Positions 13,791-22,799 of a stretch of 64,000 nucleotides of DNA are shown one piece after another. The position numbers and the translations under genes are program-made. The number at the start of each line of letters is the position of its first letter. Position 1 is the stretch's first letter. Below the pieces are notes generated by a model. The model made no database searches. It was not told the DNA's origin and saw only the letters and a program-made list of their open reading frames with translations. This DNA is from Candidatus Lustribacter sp. Its GTDB lineage: Bacteria > Vulcanimicrobiota > Vulcanimicrobiia > Vulcanimicrobiales > Vulcanimicrobiaceae. The stretch covers positions 4,064,001 through 4,128,000 of the forward strand of contig OZ255842.1 in NCBI GenBank assembly GCA_965277805.1, given 5' to 3'.

Positions 13791-15395
13791 TCAAAGTCTC
13801 CAGTCGGCGGCGTTCCACGTCGGGTTGAACGCGTTCGGCGCGAAGCCGTGCAATGCCGCGCGGTACGCGTAGATATACGAGGGGTCGAACAAGTACACGA
13901 TCGGGACGGCGGCGGCCACCCGCTGCTCGATGGCCGAATATAGAGCCTTGCGTTCGGCTTGCGAGGGCGCGGCCAGCGCGCGGTGCTCGAGTGCGTCGAC
14001 GTGCGGATCGCACCAGCGCATCACGTTGGCCGGGCCGTCGCACGTCAGTAGAAAACTGTCATCGGGATCGGCACCCATCGGCCACGGCACGTACGCAAGA
14101 TCGAACGCGCCGGTCGCGAGCGCGCCGCCTTCGGCCTTCGGCAAGAACAGCTTCGCGTTGGTCACGGACTTCAATGTCAGTTCGATCCCGCGCGCGTGCA
14201 GCGCCCGCTCGATGAACGCCGCCGCGCGCACGCCCGTCTGGCTCTCCGGAAACTGCACGTAGGTCAGCGCGAGCCGTTTGCCGTTCTTCACGCGCACGCC
14301 GTCCGCGCCGCGCAACCAGCCTGCCGCATCGAAGAGCCGGTCGGCCGCTGCCGGATCGTACGCCGGTAAATGTACCGCCGGATCGCGCGCCCACGAGCCG
14401 AGCGGCTGCGCCGTGTCGACGACCGGATAGCGCTTGAACGTAATCTTGTCGCTGATCGCCTGACGGTCGATCGACGCCGCGATCGCGCGGCGCACGCGCA
14501 CGTCGTCGAGCGGCGGATGCGTCGTGTTGAACGCCACTCCCGCGATCAGCGCCAGCGGAACGTACGTGAATGCAATCCCCGCGTGTCCGAGCATCGATTG
14601 CTGCTGCACGGGCGAGATCAAGTTCCAGTCGAGCGCGCCGCTGAGCAGCGAGGTATAGTTCGTGCCCGGATCGGGAACGATGCGAATGTCGAGCCGCTTC
14701 GTCGCCGGCGCGCCGCGCCAATACGCGGGATTGCTTTCGTACACGAGCCGCTCGCCGCGCTCCCACGACACGAACTTGTACGGGCCGTCGCCCACCGGCG
14801 CGCCGCCGAACGCCGCACGATCGAGCGGCGGTTCGTTCGCGAGCAAATGCGCGGGCAGCACGTACTGCGGCGCGGTACCGTAGCTGAATAACGTCGCAAC
14901 TGCGGGCGCCCACGGCGCCTTGAGCACCACGCGCACGGTTTCATCGTCGATGCGCTCGGCGCGCGCCACGCGGTCGTAGCCTTCGCGCGAACCGACCGGA
15001 TTGCGCGGATCGACGATCGCGTGCAGCGTGAAGAGCACGTCGCTCGCCGTCACCGGCACGCCGTCTTGCCAGCGCACGCCGTGCCGCAGACGGTATGTGA
15101 TCGTGCGTCCGTCACGCGAGAGATCGCCGTTCGCGACGGTTGGGATGCGCGCCAGCAAAATGGGTATGGCGCGTCCGTGCGCATCGATATCGATAAACGG
15201 CTCGAATGCAAGCCGGGCCAGTTGCTGCTCGACGCTGTTGGCGTCGGCATGCGCGAAGAGCGGATCCAGCGTTTGCGGATCGGCGGCGATGGCAAAGCGC
15301 ACGTTCGCGGCGGGCGTCCCGGTACCGCCGGTTCGCGTACAGGCCGTGGCCGCCAGCAGCAGCGCGATTCCAAGCCGGCGGAGAGCGGCGATCAC
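13791..15395 (-). CDS. Peptide ABC transporter substrate-binding lipoprotein (family 5)
   Basis: ATAC lipobox; LRHGVRWQDGVPVTASDVLFT, GDGPYKF, DVRVRRAI motifs. Confidence 0.92.
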   Translation of the reverse strand: MIAALRRLGIALLLAATACTRTGGTGTPAANVRFAIAADPQTLDPLFAHADANSVEQQLARLAFEPFIDIDAHGRAIPILLARIPTVANGDLSRDGRTITYRLRHGVRWQDGVPVTASDVLFTLHAIVDPRNPVGSREGYDRVARAERIDDETVRVVLKAPWAPAVATLFSYGTAPQYVLPAHLLANEPPLDRAAFGGAPVGDGPYKFVSWERGERLVYESNPAYWRGAPATKRLDIRIVPDPGTNYTSLLSGALDWNLISPVQQQSMLGHAGIAFTYVPLALIAGVAFNTTHPPLDDVRVRRAIAASIDRQAISDKITFKRYPVVDTAQPLGSWARDPAVHLPAYDPAAADRLFDAAGWLRGADGVRVKNGKRLALTYVQFPESQTGVRAAAFIERALHARGIELTLKSVTNAKLFLPKAEGGALATGAFDLAYVPWPMGADPDDSFLLTCDGPANVMRWCDPHVDALEHRALAAPSQAERKALYSAIEQRVAAAVPIVYLFDPSYIYAYRAALHGFAPNAFNPTWNAADWRL

Positions 15396-15484
15396 CCCGC
15401 TGGCGGTTTTCCCCGGGGGGCCGAAGCCCTGCGGGGCCGGCCGCAACGGTCGGCCGAGGTGGGCGGTTTCAAGGTTTCGGTCTG

Positions 15485-16864
15485 ATGCTCGAACTCGAAT
15501 TACCACCCCCTGGTCAATCGCCGGCCGCCGCGCCGGCGTCGTTCGAACACAGGCGGCTACGCGACGGAGCCTTCTGGCAAACCGTCCCTCGGTACGCTGG
15601 GGTGGATGAGGCGACGTTTCTCGACCATGGCTGGCAAGGCCGAAACTCGGTCAAGACGCCGGACGAACTCTTCGCCACGATCGACGGGCTGGTCGACGCG
15701 GCGTTCATCGCCGACGCCCGCGAGGGCTTCGAGCTCGCGCCGATGGCCGTGCGGGTCTCGCCGTACCTCATCGCCGCGATCGACTGGTCGCAGCCCTACA
15801 CCGATCCGATACGTCGCCAGTTCATCCCGCTGCGGTCGACCGCGCGCTCCGATCATCCGCGGCTGACGCTCGACTCGCTGCACGAACAGCAAGACTCGCC
15901 CGTACCGGGCCTGATCCATCGCTACGCCGACAAAGCGCTCTTTCTGCCGACGCAAACGTGCCCGGTGTATTGCCGCTTTTGTACGCGCTCGTACGTCATC
16001 GGACCCGACACCGAGAGCGTCGACAAACTCGCGCTCGGCAAGACGCCCGATGCATGGGGTCCGGTGTTCGATTACATCGCCGCGCATCCGGAGATCGAAG
16101 ACATCGTCATTTCCGGCGGTGATGCCTACCAGCTCGCGCCGAAGAACATCACGCTCATCGGCGACGCGCTGCTCGCGATCCCGCACGTGCGGCGCATGCG
16201 CTTTGCAACCAAAGGCCTGGCCGTGATGCCGATGAAAATTCTGACCGACCCTGCCTGGGTCGATGCGCTCGTCGGCGTCGTCAATAAGGGCCGCGCGCTC
16301 GGCAAAGAAGTCGTCGTGCACACGCACTTCAACCACCCGAACGAAATCACCGCGATAACGGCGCGCGCCATGGCGGTGTTATTCGAGCGCGGGGTGTACG
16401 TGCGTAACCAAACCGTTCTCATGCGCGGCGTCAACGATGACGCCGCAACCATGTTGCTGCTGGTGAAGCGGCTCGAGTACGTCAACATTCACCCGTATTA
16501 CGTGTACGTGCACGACTTGGTGAGCGGCGTCGAAGACCTGCGCACGTCGGTGCAAACCGCGCTGGACATCGAAAAAACCGTGCGCGGAGCGACCGCCGGC
16601 TACAACACGCCGACATTCGTCTGCGATGCGCCCGGCGGCGGCGGCAAGCGCGACGTGCACTCGTTCGAATGGTACGACCGCGAAACCGGGGTGTCGGTGT
16701 GGACCGCGCCGAGCGTCAAGCCCGGCAAGTATTTCCTGTACTTCGACCCGCTCAACGCACTCGAGCCGCGCATGCAAGCGCGCTGGGCCGTACCGGAACT
16801 GCAAGACCGCATGATCGCCGACGCCTTGGCCCATGCGGGCGGAACCGCCGCCGCACTCGCCTAA
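15485..16864 (+). CDS. KamA-family radical SAM/PLP enzyme (lysine 2,3-aminomutase-like)
   Basis: CPVYCRFC, SGGD, HFNHPNE, NQTVL.RGVND, DAPGGGGK motifs. Confidence 0.92.
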   Translation: MLELELPPPGQSPAAAPASFEHRRLRDGAFWQTVPRYAGVDEATFLDHGWQGRNSVKTPDELFATIDGLVDAAFIADAREGFELAPMAVRVSPYLIAAIDWSQPYTDPIRRQFIPLRSTARSDHPRLTLDSLHEQQDSPVPGLIHRYADKALFLPTQTCPVYCRFCTRSYVIGPDTESVDKLALGKTPDAWGPVFDYIAAHPEIEDIVISGGDAYQLAPKNITLIGDALLAIPHVRRMRFATKGLAVMPMKILTDPAWVDALVGVVNKGRALGKEVVVHTHFNHPNEITAITARAMAVLFERGVYVRNQTVLMRGVNDDAATMLLLVKRLEYVNIHPYYVYVHDLVSGVEDLRTSVQTALDIEKTVRGATAGYNTPTFVCDAPGGGGKRDVHSFEWYDRETGVSVWTAPSVKPGKYFLYFDPLNALEPRMQARWAVPELQDRMIADALAHAGGTAAALA

Positions 16865-16874
16865 GCCCCCACGC

Positions 16875-17162
16875 ATGCTCGTCAACTGCGTCATCTACAC
16901 GTTTCCGGCCGACAAAGCCGAGGAAGCGGCGAAAGCTCTGGTCCCGTTGCGCGACGGATCGCGCGCCGAGGCAGGCTGCATCACGTTCGACGTTTCGCGC
17001 AGCAACGAAGATCCCAACGTCTTCGTGCTCTACGAAGAGTGGCGCGATCAGGAGGCGCTCGACGTGCACTACAAGACCGCGCACTTCGAGAAGTACGGGA
17101 TCAACGGGATACGCGTGCTCGCGAGCAACCGCGTCGCCCATCGCTGCCGGCCGCTCGAATAA
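16875..17162 (+). CDS. Antibiotic biosynthesis monooxygenase (ABM)/quinol monooxygenase family
   Basis: SRAEAGC, FVLYEEWRDQEALDVH..T.HF motifs. Confidence 0.88.
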   Translation: MLVNCVIYTFPADKAEEAAKALVPLRDGSRAEAGCITFDVSRSNEDPNVFVLYEEWRDQEALDVHYKTAHFEKYGINGIRVLASNRVAHRCRPLE

Positions 17163-17170
17163 CGCCGCAC

Positions 17171-17734
17171 ATGATGCGGTGGTGTGTCTTCTGCGGTTCG
17201 TCGCCGGGCAACGATCCGCGCTTCGTTGAGTATGCGACCGCGGCCGGCACCGCGATCGCGCAGAGCGGCAACGAACTCGTCTACGGCGGAGGCCGGACCG
17301 GGCTCATGGGGGCCGTGGCGGATGCAACGATCGCTGCGGGCGGCCGGGTCATCGGCGTCATCCCGCGGCACCTCGAGGAGCGCGAGGTCGCGCATCGCGG
17401 CATCAGCGACCTGCGCGTCGTCGGGTCGATGCACGAGCGCAAGGCCCTCATGGCCGAGCTGAGCGGCGGCTTCATCGCGCTGCCGGGCGGCTTCGGGACC
17501 TTCGAAGAATACTGCGAGGTCGTGACCTGGGTCCAGCTCGGGATCCAGCGCAAGCCCTGCATCCTAGCCAACCTCGACGGCTTCTACGACCCCTTGGTGG
17601 CGCAGTTCGACCGCGGCCGCGATGCCGGGTTTATCACGCCGGTCAACCGCGAAATCGTCCAAGTGGTGACATCCCTTGCGGGTTTACTGGCCGTCGTTTC
17701 AAGGAACACCTCGACGGAGCGCATACTTCCCTAG
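17171..17734 (+). CDS. LOG family nucleotide phosphoribohydrolase
   Basis: VFCGS, YGGG..GLMG, MHERK, PGGFGTFEE motifs. Confidence 0.93.
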   Translation: MMRWCVFCGSSPGNDPRFVEYATAAGTAIAQSGNELVYGGGRTGLMGAVADATIAAGGRVIGVIPRHLEEREVAHRGISDLRVVGSMHERKALMAELSGGFIALPGGFGTFEEYCEVVTWVQLGIQRKPCILANLDGFYDPLVAQFDRGRDAGFITPVNREIVQVVTSLAGLLAVVSRNTSTERILP

Positions 17735-17749
17735 GCGAGGAAAGAAACG

Positions 17750-18121
17750 TTGGGAGGAATCGGGCGGCGCGCTCTTGTGGTCGATGATAACGCGATCATG
17801 CGCACGATCGTGGGTCGCATTCTGCGCGAAGCGCAGTTTGATATCGTGGAAGCCACCAACGGCGCCGAAGCAATTCAGGCGTTTTTTCGCGATAAGCCCG
17901 ACATCGTGCTGATGGATCTCAACATGGACGGCATCGACGGCACGGCGGCGATCCGCGGCATCTTGCAGATCAACCCGACGGCCCGCATCGTGGTGTGCTC
18001 GGCGACGAGCGACGCCCACATCGTCCTCAACCTGCTCAAGCTCGGCGCGAAGGGCTACGTAACGAAGCCCTTCACGCCGGAGAAGTTGCTCAACGCAATC
18101 GACGCCGCCCTCGCAGCGTGA
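17750..18121 (+). CDS. Single-domain response regulator (CheY-like)
   Basis: VVDD, LMDLNM, TKPF motifs. Confidence 0.9.
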   Translation: MGGIGRRALVVDDNAIMRTIVGRILREAQFDIVEATNGAEAIQAFFRDKPDIVLMDLNMDGIDGTAAIRGILQINPTARIVVCSATSDAHIVLNLLKLGAKGYVTKPFTPEKLLNAIDAALAA

Positions 18122-18130
18122 TGCGGTGGC

Positions 18131-21100
18131 CTAGCCCTCGGTGAGGGCTTCGCGGATGATGCGCTCTTGCTCGACCGCGTGCGCGCCCGGATAGCCTTCG
18201 GAGGGGCTAGCGCGGTACGAGCGGCCGATGTAGCCGAGGTCGCCGAACTTCTTCGGTAGACGTTCGACCACGCGGCGGCGGACGTGCGCCCGCGCGCCCA
18301 TGTTCTTCGGCTCTTCCTGAACCCAATGGACCGACTTGAGATTCGGGTACGTCGTGGTCAGGAGTTCGAGGATCGCATCCGCCGGCAACGGCGAGAGCAG
18401 CTCGACGCGCGCGATGGCGGTCTTGGTCGCCTTCGGGTAGAGTGCGCTCGAGGTGAGATCGTAGTAGATCTTGCCCGAGCAGAGCAGCAGACGTTCCACC
18501 GACTTACGATCCTCGGCATTGGTGTAGCGCGGGTCGTCGATCAACGCATGGAACGCTCCGTCGACGAGTTCGTCCAGCGTGCCGTAGGCAGCGCGGTTGC
18601 GTAGCAGCGATTTCGGCGTCATGATGACGAGCGGGAAGGCTTCCTCGGCCTTCGCTTGGGCGCGCAGCAAGTGGAAGTACTGCGCGGCCGTCGAGCAGTT
18701 CGCAACGCGAATGTTGCCTTCGGCCGACAGCGAGAGCCAGCGCTCGAGACGGGCGCTCGAATGTTCCGGTCCCGCACCTTCATAGCCGTGCGGCAGCAGC
18801 ATGGTGAGACGCGTCGTTTCGCCCCACTTCGCCGCACCGGCGGAGATGAACTGATCGATGATAATCTGCGCACCGTTGTTGAAGTCGCCGAACTGCGCTT
18901 CCCACAACACCAGCGCTTCCGGCGCTTCGGTCGAGTAGCCGTACTCGAAGCCCAGGCACGCGTACTCGGAGAGCGGCGAGTTGTGGATTTCGAACGAGGC
19001 CTTCGCCGCCGGCAGATGCTGAAGCGGGATGTACTTCTCGTTGGTGTTCGCGTCGTGCAGCGCCGCGTGGCGGTGGCTGAACGTTCCGCGCTCGGAATCT
19101 TGTCCGGTCAGGCGGATCGGCGTGCCTTCGCTGAGCAGCGCGGCGAAGGCCAGCGCTTCGGCCAAGCCCCAGTCGACTTCGCCTTCGAGTTGCAGCGCCG
19201 ATTTGCGCTTGGCGAACTGCGCGGTGAGTTTTTTGCTCGGCGTGAAGCCGTCGGGCGTCGCCACGACCGCTTCCGACCACGCGAGCAACTTCGCGCGTTC
19301 GACGCCGGTCTCGATCGCCGCAGCGCGCGTGCCGCCCTTGGATTTCTGCGTGATGAGCTTCTTCGCGCCGTGTTCTTCCTTGACGTTGCGATGCGCCTCG
19401 GTGATGCGCGCCGTCGCGGCCTCTTGCATCGCCGTGACTTGCTCGCTCGTCAGCACGCCCTGCGCGACCAGCCGGGCAGCGAACAGCTCGCGCACGGTCG
19501 GATGCGTCTTGATGGTTTCATACATCAGCGGCTGGGTGTATGCGGGCTCGTCCTGCTCGTTGTGTCCGAAGCGGCGATAGCCGATCAGGTCGATGAGCAC
19601 ATCGCGGCCGAACTTGCGGCGGAAATCAATCGCCAGATGCACCGAGGCAATGCACATTTCGACGTCGTCGGCGTTGACGTGCACGATCGGCAGATCGTAG
19701 CCCTTCGCCAAGTCCGAAGCGTAGCGCGTCGAGCGGCCTTCCATCGGATCGGTGGTGAAGCCGATCTGGTTGTTCGAAATGATGTGGATCGTGCCGCCGG
19801 TGGCGTAGCCCGCAATCGCTTGCAGGTTGAGCACTTCGGCGACCACGCCTTGCGCCGCGAATGCCGCGTCGCCGTGGATGAGGATCGGGGCGGCGATCTG
19901 CGCGTCGAACCTCGCGATATTGTTGCTGCGATCGGTTTGCAGGCAGCGCGTCATGCCTTCGACGACGCCGTCGACCGCTTCGAGGTGCGACGGGTTGTTC
20001 GCCAGCTCGACCGTGATCTTCGTGCCGATCGGCGTGACGTAGGTGCCTTCGGCGCCGTGATGGTACTTGACGTCGCCGGTAACGTCGACTTCGTCGAGAT
20101 CCGGTTCGGCCGTCTTCATCGCGCCGGCTTCGAACTCGGCCAGCAGTTCTTCGTATGGACGGTTGACGACGTGCGCGATGGCGGAGAGGCGGCCGCGATG
20201 CGCCATGCCGAGGACGGCGGTTTGCGTGCCGTCTTCCGCCAGCATCGAGATCGTCTCTTCGAGCATCGGAATCATCACGTCCAGACCTTCGATCGAGAAG
20301 GTCTTCTGCGACATGAACTGTTTACGGAAGTAGCGCTCCATCGTCTCGACCTTGGTGAGACGCTGGAGAATTTGAACTTTGCGCTGCGGCGTGAGTTCGC
20401 GGCGGTGCATCGAGCCTTCGATGTACTCGCGCAGCCACTCACGCTGTTCGACGTTAGAGATGTGCTCGATCTCGTAGGAGATCGTGCCGCTGTAAACATT
20501 GCGCAGGTTCGGCAGCACCTCGGCGAGCGTGTCGCCGGGCACCTTCACGCGCAGCACTGTTGCCGGCACCGCGTTCATCATCGCCGGGGTGAGCTTGTAG
20601 GTGTTGGTGTCGAGCGACGGATCGCCGGGCGGCGGCGAGCCGAGCGGATCGAGCGACGCCGCAAGATGGCCGTGACGGCGATAGGCCGACACGATCGCCG
20701 AGCCCGCCGCGATGCCGCGCAGCATCTCTTCCGACGGCATGCCGGCGAGTTCGCCCGACGTGCTGCTGGGCGCGCGCGGCGGCGCAAACGTTTGCGCGCC
20801 GGCGTTCGCGTTCGCGTTGACGGCATCGCCGCGGACGCTCGCCGTGAGACCGAAGTCCGCGAAGACGTTCTCGTAGAAGTTGGCGGCGCCGTTAAGGAAC
20901 TCGTCGATGCGCTTGAGGAACTCGCCCGACGCCGCACCTTGGATGATGCGGTGGTCGTAGGTCGAGGTCATCGTCATAACTTTTTCGATCGACAGCGATT
21001 TGAGCGTCGAGTCGGGCGCGTGCGAGAAGCCCGGCGGATATGCGATCGCGCCGGCCGCAACGATCGTGCCTTGGCCGATCATCAAACGCGGCACGGATGC

Positions 21101-22198
21101 GATCGTGCCGATACCGCCGGGATTGGTCAGCGTGAACGTGGCGCCGGTCTGTTCTTCAACCGTGAGTTTGTTGTCGCGCGCTTTGGCCACGAGATCTTCG
21201 TAGGCGGCGCGGAATTGTACGAAGTTGATGCCGGCTGCGTTCTTGATCACCGGCACGACGAGCGTGCGCGAACCGTCTTTGCGTTGCGAATCGACGGCCA
21301 GACCGAGGTTAATGCCGGCCTCGACGCGCTGCGGTTTGCCGCCCTCGCGGCGGAACGACGCGCACATTCCGGGCTGTTCTTTCGCTGCTTGCGCGATGGC
21401 AAACGCGATCAGATGCGTGAACGAGATCTTCTCGCTGCGGCCCGCGCCCTTGAGCGCCGAGTTGAGTTCGGCGCGGCGCAGTTCGAGCGTGCCGACCGAG
21501 AGCGTGCGGAACGACGTGGCCGTCGGGATCGACGTGCTCTGGTCCATGTAGCTGGCCAGCGTCGCGGCCGAGCCTTTGATGTCGGTAACCTTCGTTTCGG
21601 CCGTCACCGGCGGATACGCGATCGCGGCGGCGCCGTTGGTCTTCGCCGCGCCGTTCGCTGCGGCAGGCTTCAAAGTGCCGGCGGCCATCGCGGCATCAAC
21701 GTCTTCGCGCAGGATCAGCCCGTCGGGCCCGGTGCCCTTGACGCCGGAGAGGTCGAGGCTGAAACGATCGGCGAGCCGCCGGGCATGGTGCGAGACGGTT
21801 TTGGAGAGGGCGCCCGTACCGGCGCTGTTCTTCTCGGGCGGCGGCGCGGCCGAGCCGGCCTCGCCGTACGACGCCGGAGTGACCAAGGTGGGTTCGGAGC
21901 CGGCCGGCTTCGGCGCCGGGGCCGCCGCGGCGGCACCCTCGGGCTTGGCGGCAGTGGTGTCGATCTCGATCAGTACCGAGCCGACCGCGATCGTGTCGCC
22001 CTCAGCACCGTGCAGCGCCGTAATTACGCCCGAGGCCGTGGAGGGCACCTCGACGTCGACCTTATCGGTCGTGACGTCGACGATGGTCTCGCCCTCATCG
22101 ACCCATTGACCGACCTTCTTTCGCCACTCGACAATCGAGCCTTCGGTGACCGACTCTCCCATCTCCGGAAGGGTCACCTTTACTAGGGAATCGAGCAC
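18131..22198 (-). CDS. kgd: Multifunctional 2-oxoglutarate dehydrogenase: lipoyl-PSBD-E2-E1 fusion
   Basis: TTDKV lipoyl motif; ARRLA...V.GTG.DG.I...DV PSBD; YDHRIIQG E2 site; GMAHRGR, HGDAAF...NNQIGFTT, WEAQFGDF, GPEHSSAR E1o motifs. Confidence 0.95.
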   Translation of the reverse strand: MLDSLVKVTLPEMGESVTEGSIVEWRKKVGQWVDEGETIVDVTTDKVDVEVPSTASGVITALHGAEGDTIAVGSVLIEIDTTAAKPEGAAAAAPAPKPAGSEPTLVTPASYGEAGSAAPPPEKNSAGTGALSKTVSHHARRLADRFSLDLSGVKGTGPDGLILREDVDAAMAAGTLKPAAANGAAKTNGAAAIAYPPVTAETKVTDIKGSAATLASYMDQSTSIPTATSFRTLSVGTLELRRAELNSALKGAGRSEKISFTHLIAFAIAQAAKEQPGMCASFRREGGKPQRVEAGINLGLAVDSQRKDGSRTLVVPVIKNAAGINFVQFRAAYEDLVAKARDNKLTVEEQTGATFTLTNPGGIGTIASVPRLMIGQGTIVAAGAIAYPPGFSHAPDSTLKSLSIEKVMTMTSTYDHRIIQGAASGEFLKRIDEFLNGAANFYENVFADFGLTASVRGDAVNANANAGAQTFAPPRAPSSTSGELAGMPSEEMLRGIAAGSAIVSAYRRHGHLAASLDPLGSPPPGDPSLDTNTYKLTPAMMNAVPATVLRVKVPGDTLAEVLPNLRNVYSGTISYEIEHISNVEQREWLREYIEGSMHRRELTPQRKVQILQRLTKVETMERYFRKQFMSQKTFSIEGLDVMIPMLEETISMLAEDGTQTAVLGMAHRGRLSAIAHVVNRPYEELLAEFEAGAMKTAEPDLDEVDVTGDVKYHHGAEGTYVTPIGTKITVELANNPSHLEAVDGVVEGMTRCLQTDRSNNIARFDAQIAAPILIHGDAAFAAQGVVAEVLNLQAIAGYATGGTIHIISNNQIGFTTDPMEGRSTRYASDLAKGYDLPIVHVNADDVEMCIASVHLAIDFRRKFGRDVLIDLIGYRRFGHNEQDEPAYTQPLMYETIKTHPTVRELFAARLVAQGVLTSEQVTAMQEAATARITEAHRNVKEEHGAKKLITQKSKGGTRAAAIETGVERAKLLAWSEAVVATPDGFTPSKKLTAQFAKRKSALQLEGEVDWGLAEALAFAALLSEGTPIRLTGQDSERGTFSHRHAALHDANTNEKYIPLQHLPAAKASFEIHNSPLSEYACLGFEYGYSTEAPEALVLWEAQFGDFNNGAQIIIDQFISAGAAKWGETTRLTMLLPHGYEGAGPEHSSARLERWLSLSAEGNIRVANCSTAAQYFHLLRAQAKAEEAFPLVIMTPKSLLRNRAAYGTLDELVDGAFHALIDDPRYTNAEDRKSVERLLLCSGKIYYDLTSSALYPKATKTAIARVELLSPLPADAILELLTTTYPNLKSVHWVQEEPKNMGARAHVRRRVVERLPKKFGDLGYIGRSYRASPSEGYPGAHAVEQERIIREALTEG

Positions 22199-22313
22199 GC
22201 GCTGTCCACTCCATTTGCGATCTTTGAGGTACGAGTAATTTTGCGGTTATCGAGATTATCTGCCTGCACTACAACCAAAGAAACGACAAAAGCGAGGCAC
22301 TTGTCCTTGGGGA

Positions 22314-22799
22314 CTAAAAGTGTGCGCTTGCTTCCTTCGGCACCGCTAGCCGCCGGATGTCCGCGGCACGGCCGGGCCAGCCGGCAATGAGCGGTTCGGC
22401 GTAGCCGCCCGTGAAGCACGCCGGAGTGAAGCCCGGCGCCATCGTGCAGCCGAACAGGGCGTACCGCCCGCCCGCGAGCAACTCGCCGGCCTGCCAGGTG
22501 CCGGCCGGAACCGTGAACTGCACGGCGTGACCGGCGGCCGGATCCGGTCCCATGACGACGTCGCGATCGGCGCCGCCGGGTTCGAGCAGGATCAGCCGGA
22601 ACGGATCGCCCGCGTAAAAGTGCCACACCTCATCCTGCGTGAGGACGTGAAAGAGCGAACGGCTCGGCGGATCGGCGGCATAGAGCGCGACGATCGCCGT
22701 CGATGCGCTCGAGCGATACGTTTCGGCAAACAGCGTGCCCTCGACCGGCAACGGCTGCAGATCGAATCGTTCGATCAGCGCGCGTACTTCGGGTTCCAC
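22314..22799 (-). CDS. Cupin_5/DUF985 family protein
   Basis: EG..F.ETY, DEVWHFYAG, VPAGTWQA, CTMAPGF motifs. Confidence 0.88.
   Translation of the reverse strand: MEPEVRALIERFDLQPLPVEGTLFAETYRSSASTAIVALYAADPPSRSLFHVLTQDEVWHFYAGDPFRLILLEPGGADRDVVMGPDPAAGHAVQFTVPAGTWQAGELLAGGRYALFGCTMAPGFTPACFTGGYAEPLIAGWPGRAADIRRLAVPKEASAHF

Follow-up and report, generated by a model that had tools for sequence, protein, structure and literature searches.

A lipoyl-bearing E2o-E1o fusion protein as the probable 2-oxoglutarate dehydrogenase of Candidatus Lustribacter and its class

OdhA and KGD, the 2-oxoglutarate dehydrogenases (ODHs) of Corynebacterium glutamicum and Mycobacterium smegmatis, are 0.8-MDa homohexamers in which three dimers of the dehydrogenase part (E1o) stand as blades around two trimers of the succinyltransferase part (E2o); their N-terminal hundred residues are mobile, and in C. 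glutamicum lipoyl domains are known to be shared (PMC10415282). Bruch et al., who searched finished genomes by Pfam architecture, call the OdhA-type E2-E1 fusion a 'unique feature of Actinobacteria', link its N-terminal 2-oxogl_dehyd_N segment to E2 interaction, and tie lipoyl-less OdhA to a three-residue C-terminal insertion in the E2 of pyruvate dehydrogenase (PDH), E2p, that is absent in Thermoleophilia (bioRxiv 10.1101/2020.07.24.212647). The same preprint describes three Thermoleophilia in which the '2-oxoglutarate_dh_Nterminus' gives way to two lipoyl domains and an E3-binding domain, an architecture named the full fusion 'LB-PS-E2-E1' and 'never reported before', and hypothesizes that the full fusion is active as an ODH with no lipoyl domain provided in trans. 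Here we analyse a gene of this kind from the soil bacterium Candidatus Lustribacter sp. (Eremiobacterota/Vulcanimicrobiota, class Vulcanimicrobiia), located at 18131..22198 on the minus strand of a 64,000-nucleotide stretch of contig OZ255842.1 (positions 4,064,001 to 4,128,000; hereafter the window). Literature searches on Eremiobacterota returned nothing relevant. We consider it likely that the product is a complete E1o plus E2o ODH of the OdhA/Kgd lineage and a member of the LB-PS-E2-E1 family, in which a lipoyl domain and a peripheral-subunit (E3) binding domain (PSBD) on Ala/Pro-rich linkers take the place of the docking helix of OdhA.

The gene is a single unbroken frame with no stop codon or frameshift inside, which runs from a GTG at 22198 to a stop codon at 18131-18133 and encodes 1355 residues; a GGAG lies 10 nucleotides upstream of the start. 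A first-pass annotation, made from the letters alone, had read in this frame an N-terminal lipoyl domain with an intact DK lysine, a PSBD, a succinyltransferase domain with HRIIQG and a full E1o, without naming a strand, and profile searches bore out each of these parts, on the minus strand. All six Pfam domains (PF00364, PF02817, PF00198, PF00676, PF02779 and PF16870) exceed their gathering scores in one chain. The lipoyl domain (Biotin_lipoyl, residues 7-79, 21962..22180; 62.7 bits, E 2.9e-17) carries the lipoyl lysine K46 in TTDKVDV (codon at 22061-22063), assigned from the sequence and an alignment of relatives. It is followed by a flexible Ala/Pro-rich linker (residues 80-138, 21785..21961; 52% mean identity in relatives) and by the PSBD (E3_binding, residues 139-167, 21698..21784; cut-off 23.7 bits, E 9.1e-09). 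The E2o catalytic domain (2-oxoacid_dh, residues 201-437, 20888..21598; E 2.3e-45) holds DHRIIQG at residues 415-421 (HRIIQG at 416-421), with the codon of the catalytic His416 at 20951-20953. Beyond an E2o-E1o linker placed between the Pfam and phmmer domain limits (residues 438-500, 20699..20887; 50% mean identity in relatives), the E1o decarboxylase/dehydrogenase part (residues 501-1355, 18134..20698), delimited by Pfam, NCBIfam, alignment to Protein Data Bank (PDB) entries and the alignment of relatives, comprises E1_dh (residues 639-943, 19370-20284; E 3.5e-48), Transket_pyr (residues 1007-1200, 18599-19180; E 3.7e-45) and OxoGdeHyase_C (residues 1207-1352, 18143-18580; E 1.1e-33), and bears the thiamine diphosphate (ThDP) motif HGDAAF (residues 775-780) ... 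NNQIGFTT (residues 809-816). The multifunctional OdhA/Kgd-type model NF008907 matches at 1410.9 bits against a cut-off of 878 and spans residues 176-1353, so that the N-terminal 175 residues are extra relative to the OdhA/Kgd family. The Pfam scan at E <= 0.01 did not find PF16078, the 2-oxogl_dehyd_N docking motif of lipoyl-less OdhA, in this protein. The name that the databases give the protein is correct.

We asked how far the long frame itself can be trusted, since an assembly chimera, or read-through of separate sucB-like and sucA-like genes, would give the same layout. The genome of the window is a single 5.53-Mb contig, and the whole protein was searched against 150 other genomes of the same phylum of the Genome Taxonomy Database (GTDB). 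The gene was matched in 81 of 81 other sampled genomes of the class (families coded f1, f2 and f3), and in 68 of them the frame is uninterrupted from residue <=7 to >=1352. In the remaining 13, one of which (G128) is an unpublished genome, the gene is in pieces, at contig ends or frame breaks; of the two inspected, a neighbouring frame of G119 encodes two lipoyl domains and G083 ends with its contig. The first-pass annotation had supposed that similar fusions may already be in databases, and indeed 119 of the 120 best database homologues carry the lipoyl, E2 and E1 parts in a single chain by phmmer domain calls, the exception being N-terminally short. Moreover, a 6574-nucleotide peat-metagenome contig from a different study, about 90% identical, runs from the gene start through the lipoyl domain, PSBD and E2 into E1 (20442-22198). 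Given the unbroken frames across the class, the single-chain homologues and this independent contig, the chimera that the first-pass annotation had named as a possible refutation is excluded, and an artefact of any kind is hardly credible. Exact pieces of the gene are also present in read run X1, but X1 may be the source sample. Metatranscriptome run X19 was rejected as evidence for transcription of the gene: it yielded merely short contigs of 85-93% likeness, from relatives.

The lipoyl arm is strongly conserved. When the window protein was aligned with 105 close homologues (106 rows), their mean identity to it was 86% for the lipoyl domain, 80% for E2, 80% for E1, 72% for the PSBD and 48-52% for the three linkers, which makes the lipoyl domain the best conserved domain of the protein; a vestigial lipoyl domain was rejected on this ground. 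TTDKVDV, including K46, is invariant in 106 of 106 rows, as are the E2 motif residues D415-H416-R417, Q420 and G421, and the ThDP motif hardly varies. Residues 1-470 were modelled with AlphaFold2 from a 28-row alignment (mean predicted local distance difference test score, pLDDT, 82.5); the model folds the lipoyl domain (pLDDT 82-96), the PSBD and the E2 domain confidently, with the PSBD as two helices (pLDDT 74-92). Residues 93-132 (pLDDT <50) and 182-189 are disordered, as swinging-arm linkers would be. With this model as Foldseek query, the catalytic domain matched OdhA and KGD best, in their E2o domains and at 45-48% identity.

The rest of the genome was surveyed for other ODH components. 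The sole match to OxoGdeHyase_C, and hence to E1o, in the 5.53-Mb genome is the gene described here. Three other E2 genes are present, one an aceF-type E2p that bears two lipoyl domains and precedes lpd, and two behind their own E1alpha/E1beta pairs. No stand-alone or orphan sucB-like E2 was found anywhere in the 5.53 Mb, which answers the search for a separate sucB that the first-pass annotation had proposed. lipB and lipA are present downstream of aceF-lpd, and sucC is also present in the genome. The C-terminus of E2p is canonical: it aligns without gaps to the E2p C-termini of Escherichia coli and Azotobacter vinelandii and lacks the actinobacterial three-residue insertion, which fits the correlation that Bruch et al. 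draw between this insertion and lipoyl-less OdhA. As a separate observation, one of the E2 genes behind E1alpha/E1beta is split (L002 1477-2884; G000:C1 ~5494145-5495552, outside the window): a 239-residue lipoyl plus PSBD frame ends at a TAG, and the catalytic domain occupies a 279-residue open reading frame in a different phase, the two overlapping in the linker. The split may be genuine, as a frameshift or pseudogene, or it may come from a sequencing error.

To place the protein among its relatives, one genome per GTDB species was surveyed with an alignment of the N-terminal halves of four full fusions as query. The best 80 of more than 609 stretches were analysed, a set biased toward lipoyl-bearing forms and not a census. 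By domain calls, at least one lipoyl domain is fused to E2-E1 in 37 of the 80 loci: 27 from Thermoleophilia, 5 from Vulcanimicrobiota/Eremiobacteraeota, 2 from metagenome-assembled genomes (MAGs) labelled Actinomycetes, and 1 each from Dormibacteria, an unclassified source and a contig labelled Chlamydiae. E2-E1 without a lipoyl domain was found in 41 (Acidobacteriota 15; Actinomycetes 8; Gemmatimonadota 5; Chloroflexota 4; Thermoleophilia 4; Bacteroidota 2; Ignavibacteriota 1; Planctomycetota 1; unclassified Actinomycetota 1), and 2 loci are split forms. The survey of architectures across phyla that the first-pass annotation had called for thus yields lipoyl-bearing fusions in Thermoleophilia, Eremiobacterota and Dormibacteria. 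Three of the four lipoyl-less Thermoleophilia loci gave tblastn matches from residue 8-11 and are therefore frame breaks, and the fourth starts at a contig end. Among the 27 lipoyl-bearing Thermoleophilia loci, which include Patulibacter minatonensis DSM 18081, 9 have one lipoyl domain and 18 have two; one Eremiobacterota locus (L068) also has two. The count differs between sisters in both Thermoleophilia and Eremiobacterota (L037 vs L044, L064 vs L062, L068 vs L033), so lipoyl repeats have often been gained or lost. Pfam searches of eight surveyed proteins found Biotin_lipoyl and E3_binding without PF16078 in all four full fusions and PF16078 in all four lipoyl-less proteins, which suggests that the lipoyl-PSBD arm and PF16078 are a strict either/or.

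The lipoyl-less OdhA-type E2-E1 form occurs outside Actinobacteria at L059, L063, L069-L071, L073-L076, L079-L081, L083-L090, L093-L096 and L103-L106. With Acidobacteriota, Gemmatimonadota, Chloroflexota, Planctomycetota, Bacteroidota and Ignavibacteriota among its hosts, the type is far wider than Actinobacteria, the group to which Bruch et al. assign it, and OdhA-type E2-E1 fusions are by this survey not confined there. Other classes of the window's phylum have mostly a separate E1o (41-45% E1 identity to the window protein) and a separate E2. Among the 61 genomes of the phylum to which the Dormibacteria MAG belongs, the full fusion was found in 2, lipoyl-less E2-E1 in 5, and a separate E1o in 14, one of them the unpublished genome G193. 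Judged from these sequences, the full fusion is the standard form of ODH in Vulcanimicrobiia (Eremiobacterota) and occurs too in a Dormibacteria genome. Two further loci are recorded as side observations. L117 (G092:C523:7600-12100), from another class of the window's phylum, is a 1202-residue E2-E1 frame with no lipoyl domain or PSBD, and its class assignment is unsure because G092 is rated 6% contaminated. L042, labelled 'Chlamydiae bacterium', carries a full fusion with two lipoyl domains that the E1 tree places within Solirubrobacteraceae, and its contig is probably mis-binned or mislabelled.

Phylogenies of the E1 domain were built with FastTree from 97 rows (72 loci, those among the 80 whose E1 is near-complete, plus 10 proteins from databases and 15 representatives with E1 only) and with IQ-TREE under LG+G4 from 52 rows chosen from these. 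The two trees agree, and both are unrooted. Five other Eremiobacterota group with the window protein in a clade (support 100) that joins the Dormibacteria locus and its unclassified sister (support 98), and this group in turn joins a Miltoncostaeales-like group of Thermoleophilia (support 99). All of them fall in a clade of 29 rows (support 100) together with the remaining Thermoleophilia full fusions and lipoyl-less Gemmatimonadota and Chloroflexota. The classical OdhA of Actinomycetes (Micromonospora, Microbacterium) falls outside this clade, beside forms from Acidobacteriota, Planctomycetota and Bacteroidota. The main clade's 23 full fusions stand on one side of a branch with a maximum-likelihood support of 78.6 and a FastTree support of 98. 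Two full-fusion representatives, P0126 and P0131, are unplaced long branches in both trees, and a single clade of all 25 full fusions including them was not rejected (p-AU 0.19). These results point to common descent of the window protein with the full fusions of Thermoleophilia. Because the trees are unrooted, gain and loss of the lipoyl arm are indistinguishable.

Gene order in relatives provides a further link to the E3 component. In 4 of 86 related loci, L097 (Dormibacteria), L099, L061 and L067, lpd lies directly after the fused gene on the same strand. All four are lipoyl-bearing, and their groups are those closest to the Eremiobacterial clade. The start of lpd and the stop of the fused gene overlap by 4 nucleotides in L061; the pair occupies 3947-9561 in L061 and 3977-9405 in L097, and both of these lpd genes score above the TIGR01350 cut-off although the locus end truncates them. 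With about 1.3 kb downstream of each gene covered, no lipoyl-less locus has lpd directly after the gene. In L061, L097, L067 and L099, the fused gene and lpd would make a complete ODH in two genes.

Taken together, the sole E1o of the genome, the lack of sucB there, the invariant K46, the best-conserved lipoyl domain, the missing 2-oxogl_dehyd_N, the canonical E2p C-terminus and the lpd linkage in relatives all fit an enzyme that needs no lipoyl domain from elsewhere, in line with the reasonable suggestion of the first-pass annotation that E3 may be its sole requirement, and we infer, with good support, that the window protein would show ODH activity with E3 alone. In such an enzyme, LipB and LipA would lipoylate K46; E1o would decarboxylate 2-oxoglutarate on ThDP and succinylate the lipoyl arm of its own or a neighbouring chain; the arm would bring the succinyl group to the E2o site, where His416 would transfer it to CoA; and Lpd held by the PSBD would re-oxidize the arm, yielding NADH. 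By homology with OdhA and KGD, the protein is probably hexameric, with three E1o dimers and two E2o trimers; the lipoyl domain and PSBD, tethered by linkers of about 55 and 30 residues, would stand where those proteins have the mobile docking helix. Within one particle, six arms could thus move between the E1o, E2o and PSBD-bound Lpd sites. With six arms and six E3 docks on such a hexamer, one polypeptide and Lpd would be the whole ODH, with no E2 core and no PDH/ODH supercomplex. More tentatively, we suggest as a possibility that the polypeptide and Lpd form this complete core-less complex, and that the self-contained form is ancestral to the E2o-E1o lineage, was kept in Thermoleophilia, Dormibacteria and Eremiobacterota, and gave rise to the lipoyl-less OdhA of Actinomycetes, Acidobacteriota, Gemmatimonadota and Chloroflexota when the arm was swapped for 2-oxogl_dehyd_N.

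Several points weigh against the self-contained enzyme. The genome has one lpd above the TIGR01350 cut-off, which sits in the aceF (PDH) cluster and is not adjacent to the ODH gene. An alpha subunit of a 2-oxoacid:acceptor oxidoreductase, above the TIGR03710 cut-off, is encoded at G000:C1:4926103-4927809, outside the window; this is a possible ferredoxin-linked alternative, so the ODH enzyme need not be the sole route from 2-oxoglutarate. The PSBD match is modest at 35.8 bits and starts with SHHARRLA, where the start of a PSBD is usually S-P-x-A-R. By alignment limits the E2o-E1o linker is about 50 residues long in the window protein and about 24 in M. smegmatis KGD, and an identical hexamer is therefore not guaranteed. 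Finally, literature searches located no experimental work on any full-fusion member, just the bioinformatic note of Bruch et al.

Besides the artefact dealt with above, two other explanations have to be weighed. Like actinobacterial OdhA, the fused protein may still sit in a mixed PDH/ODH supercomplex, with its own arm auxiliary and succinyl passing mostly via the lipoyl domains of AceF. The location of the only lpd above cut-off would suit this arrangement, as would the homology of the E2o-E1o body to OdhA/KGD and the lipoyl-domain sharing known in C. glutamicum (PMC10415282). However, the window protein lacks the very segment that Bruch et al. tie to E2 interaction, the E2p of this genome ends as a canonical cubic-core E2p without the actinobacterial insertion, and an auxiliary arm is hard to square with a lipoyl domain that is the best conserved part of the protein, so we regard the supercomplex as unlikely. 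Alternatively, the main substrate could be another 2-oxoacid such as 2-oxoadipate, or the protein could act mainly as a decarboxylase/carboligase rather than as the ODH of the tricarboxylic acid (TCA) cycle. A decarboxylase/carboligase role was suggested in the past for mycobacterial Kgd; several activities are listed in the name of NF008907, and the human 2-oxoadipate enzyme DHKTD1 is among the PDB matches, albeit at lower scores. Against this, the cut-offs of the E1o equivalog models are all exceeded (NF006914 at 1072 bits, TIGR00239 at 960 bits), the genome has this one E1o and also sucC, and a lipoyl arm and PSBD beside an intact E2 site would be pointless outside the full dehydrogenase reaction, which renders such a role very unlikely. 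The complete, lipoyl-bearing ODH is the reading that we prefer.

The surroundings of the gene in this genome gave no operon clue when the neighbouring genes were inspected. None of them is related to the TCA cycle: upstream, a 115-nucleotide gap separates the gene from the preceding Cupin_5 gene; downstream lies a convergent response regulator; and short-chain dehydrogenases/reductases (SDRs) are also nearby. A scan of 17900-22500 for promoters and terminators returned no signal above shuffled expectation. On the plus strand, 15206-18121 encodes a radical-SAM/LAM_C-like protein (weak matches), a LOG-type 'Lysine_decarbox' protein and the single-domain response regulator, whose end lies 10 nucleotides from the ODH stop codon.

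The first-pass annotation had suggested a distinct complex architecture. It overrated the novelty in this respect, since the preprint of Bruch et al. had already reported this layout, and put forward the same hypothesis, for Thermoleophilia. What appears new is the host range, with the full fusion as standard ODH of Vulcanimicrobiia and in a Dormibacteria genome, although a wider distribution given in published work may have been missed; also new are the either/or of the lipoyl-PSBD arm and PF16078, how strongly this arm is conserved, and the two-gene odhA-lpd arrangement in relatives. If E3 alone suffices, this would be the simplest complete 2-oxoacid dehydrogenase complex known, made of two gene products without a 24- or 60-mer E2 core. 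With such a clean system one could ask what purpose giant cores serve and in what way a single swinging arm attends to three active sites. The family includes the cultured strains Vulcanimicrobium alpinum and P. minatonensis DSM 18081, so the hypothesis of Bruch et al. is easily taken to the bench, and the full fusion is a good candidate for the first biochemical test of its family.

Compared with known systems, the window protein is closest in layout to the LB-PS-E2-E1 proteins of Thermoleophilia described in the preprint. It has the same one-chain Pfam architecture, likewise without the 2-oxogl_dehyd_N segment, its E1 domain groups with theirs, and its identity to Thermoleophilia full fusions is 47-53% over the N-terminal half. 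Unlike the three Thermoleophilia reported there, which have two lipoyl domains, it has one, and its host belongs to Eremiobacterota/Vulcanimicrobiota rather than to Actinomycetota. Because one- and two-lipoyl forms vary among close relatives in both phyla, we do not treat the lipoyl count as defining the full fusion. Of the proteins with solved structures, M. smegmatis KGD (8P5R) matches at 921 bits and C. glutamicum OdhA (8P5T) at 862 bits, and these two are the closest. From residue 176 on, the E2 part can be aligned, scoring 219.8 bits against the E2o domain of M. smegmatis KGD and sharing the motif TSTYDHRIIQGA with it. As in these proteins (PDB 8P5R-8P5X, 2XT6), E2o lies N-terminal to E1o, and the DHRIIQG and ThDP motifs are common to both. 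In contrast, OdhA and KGD have no lipoyl domain and no PSBD, bear a helical segment at the N-terminus and depend on AceF for lipoyl groups, whereas the window protein has a lipoyl domain and a PSBD of its own; the classical OdhA of Actinomycetes also stands in a different E1 clade in both trees. The chemistry and the overall domain set are those of canonical SucA and SucB of E. coli (PDB 2JGD, 1C4T), and the E1o part matches E. coli SucA at 643 bits. In the canonical system, however, these domains are divided between two separate proteins, with a 24-mer E2o core to which E1o docks via its N-terminus, whereas in the window protein they are joined in one frame.

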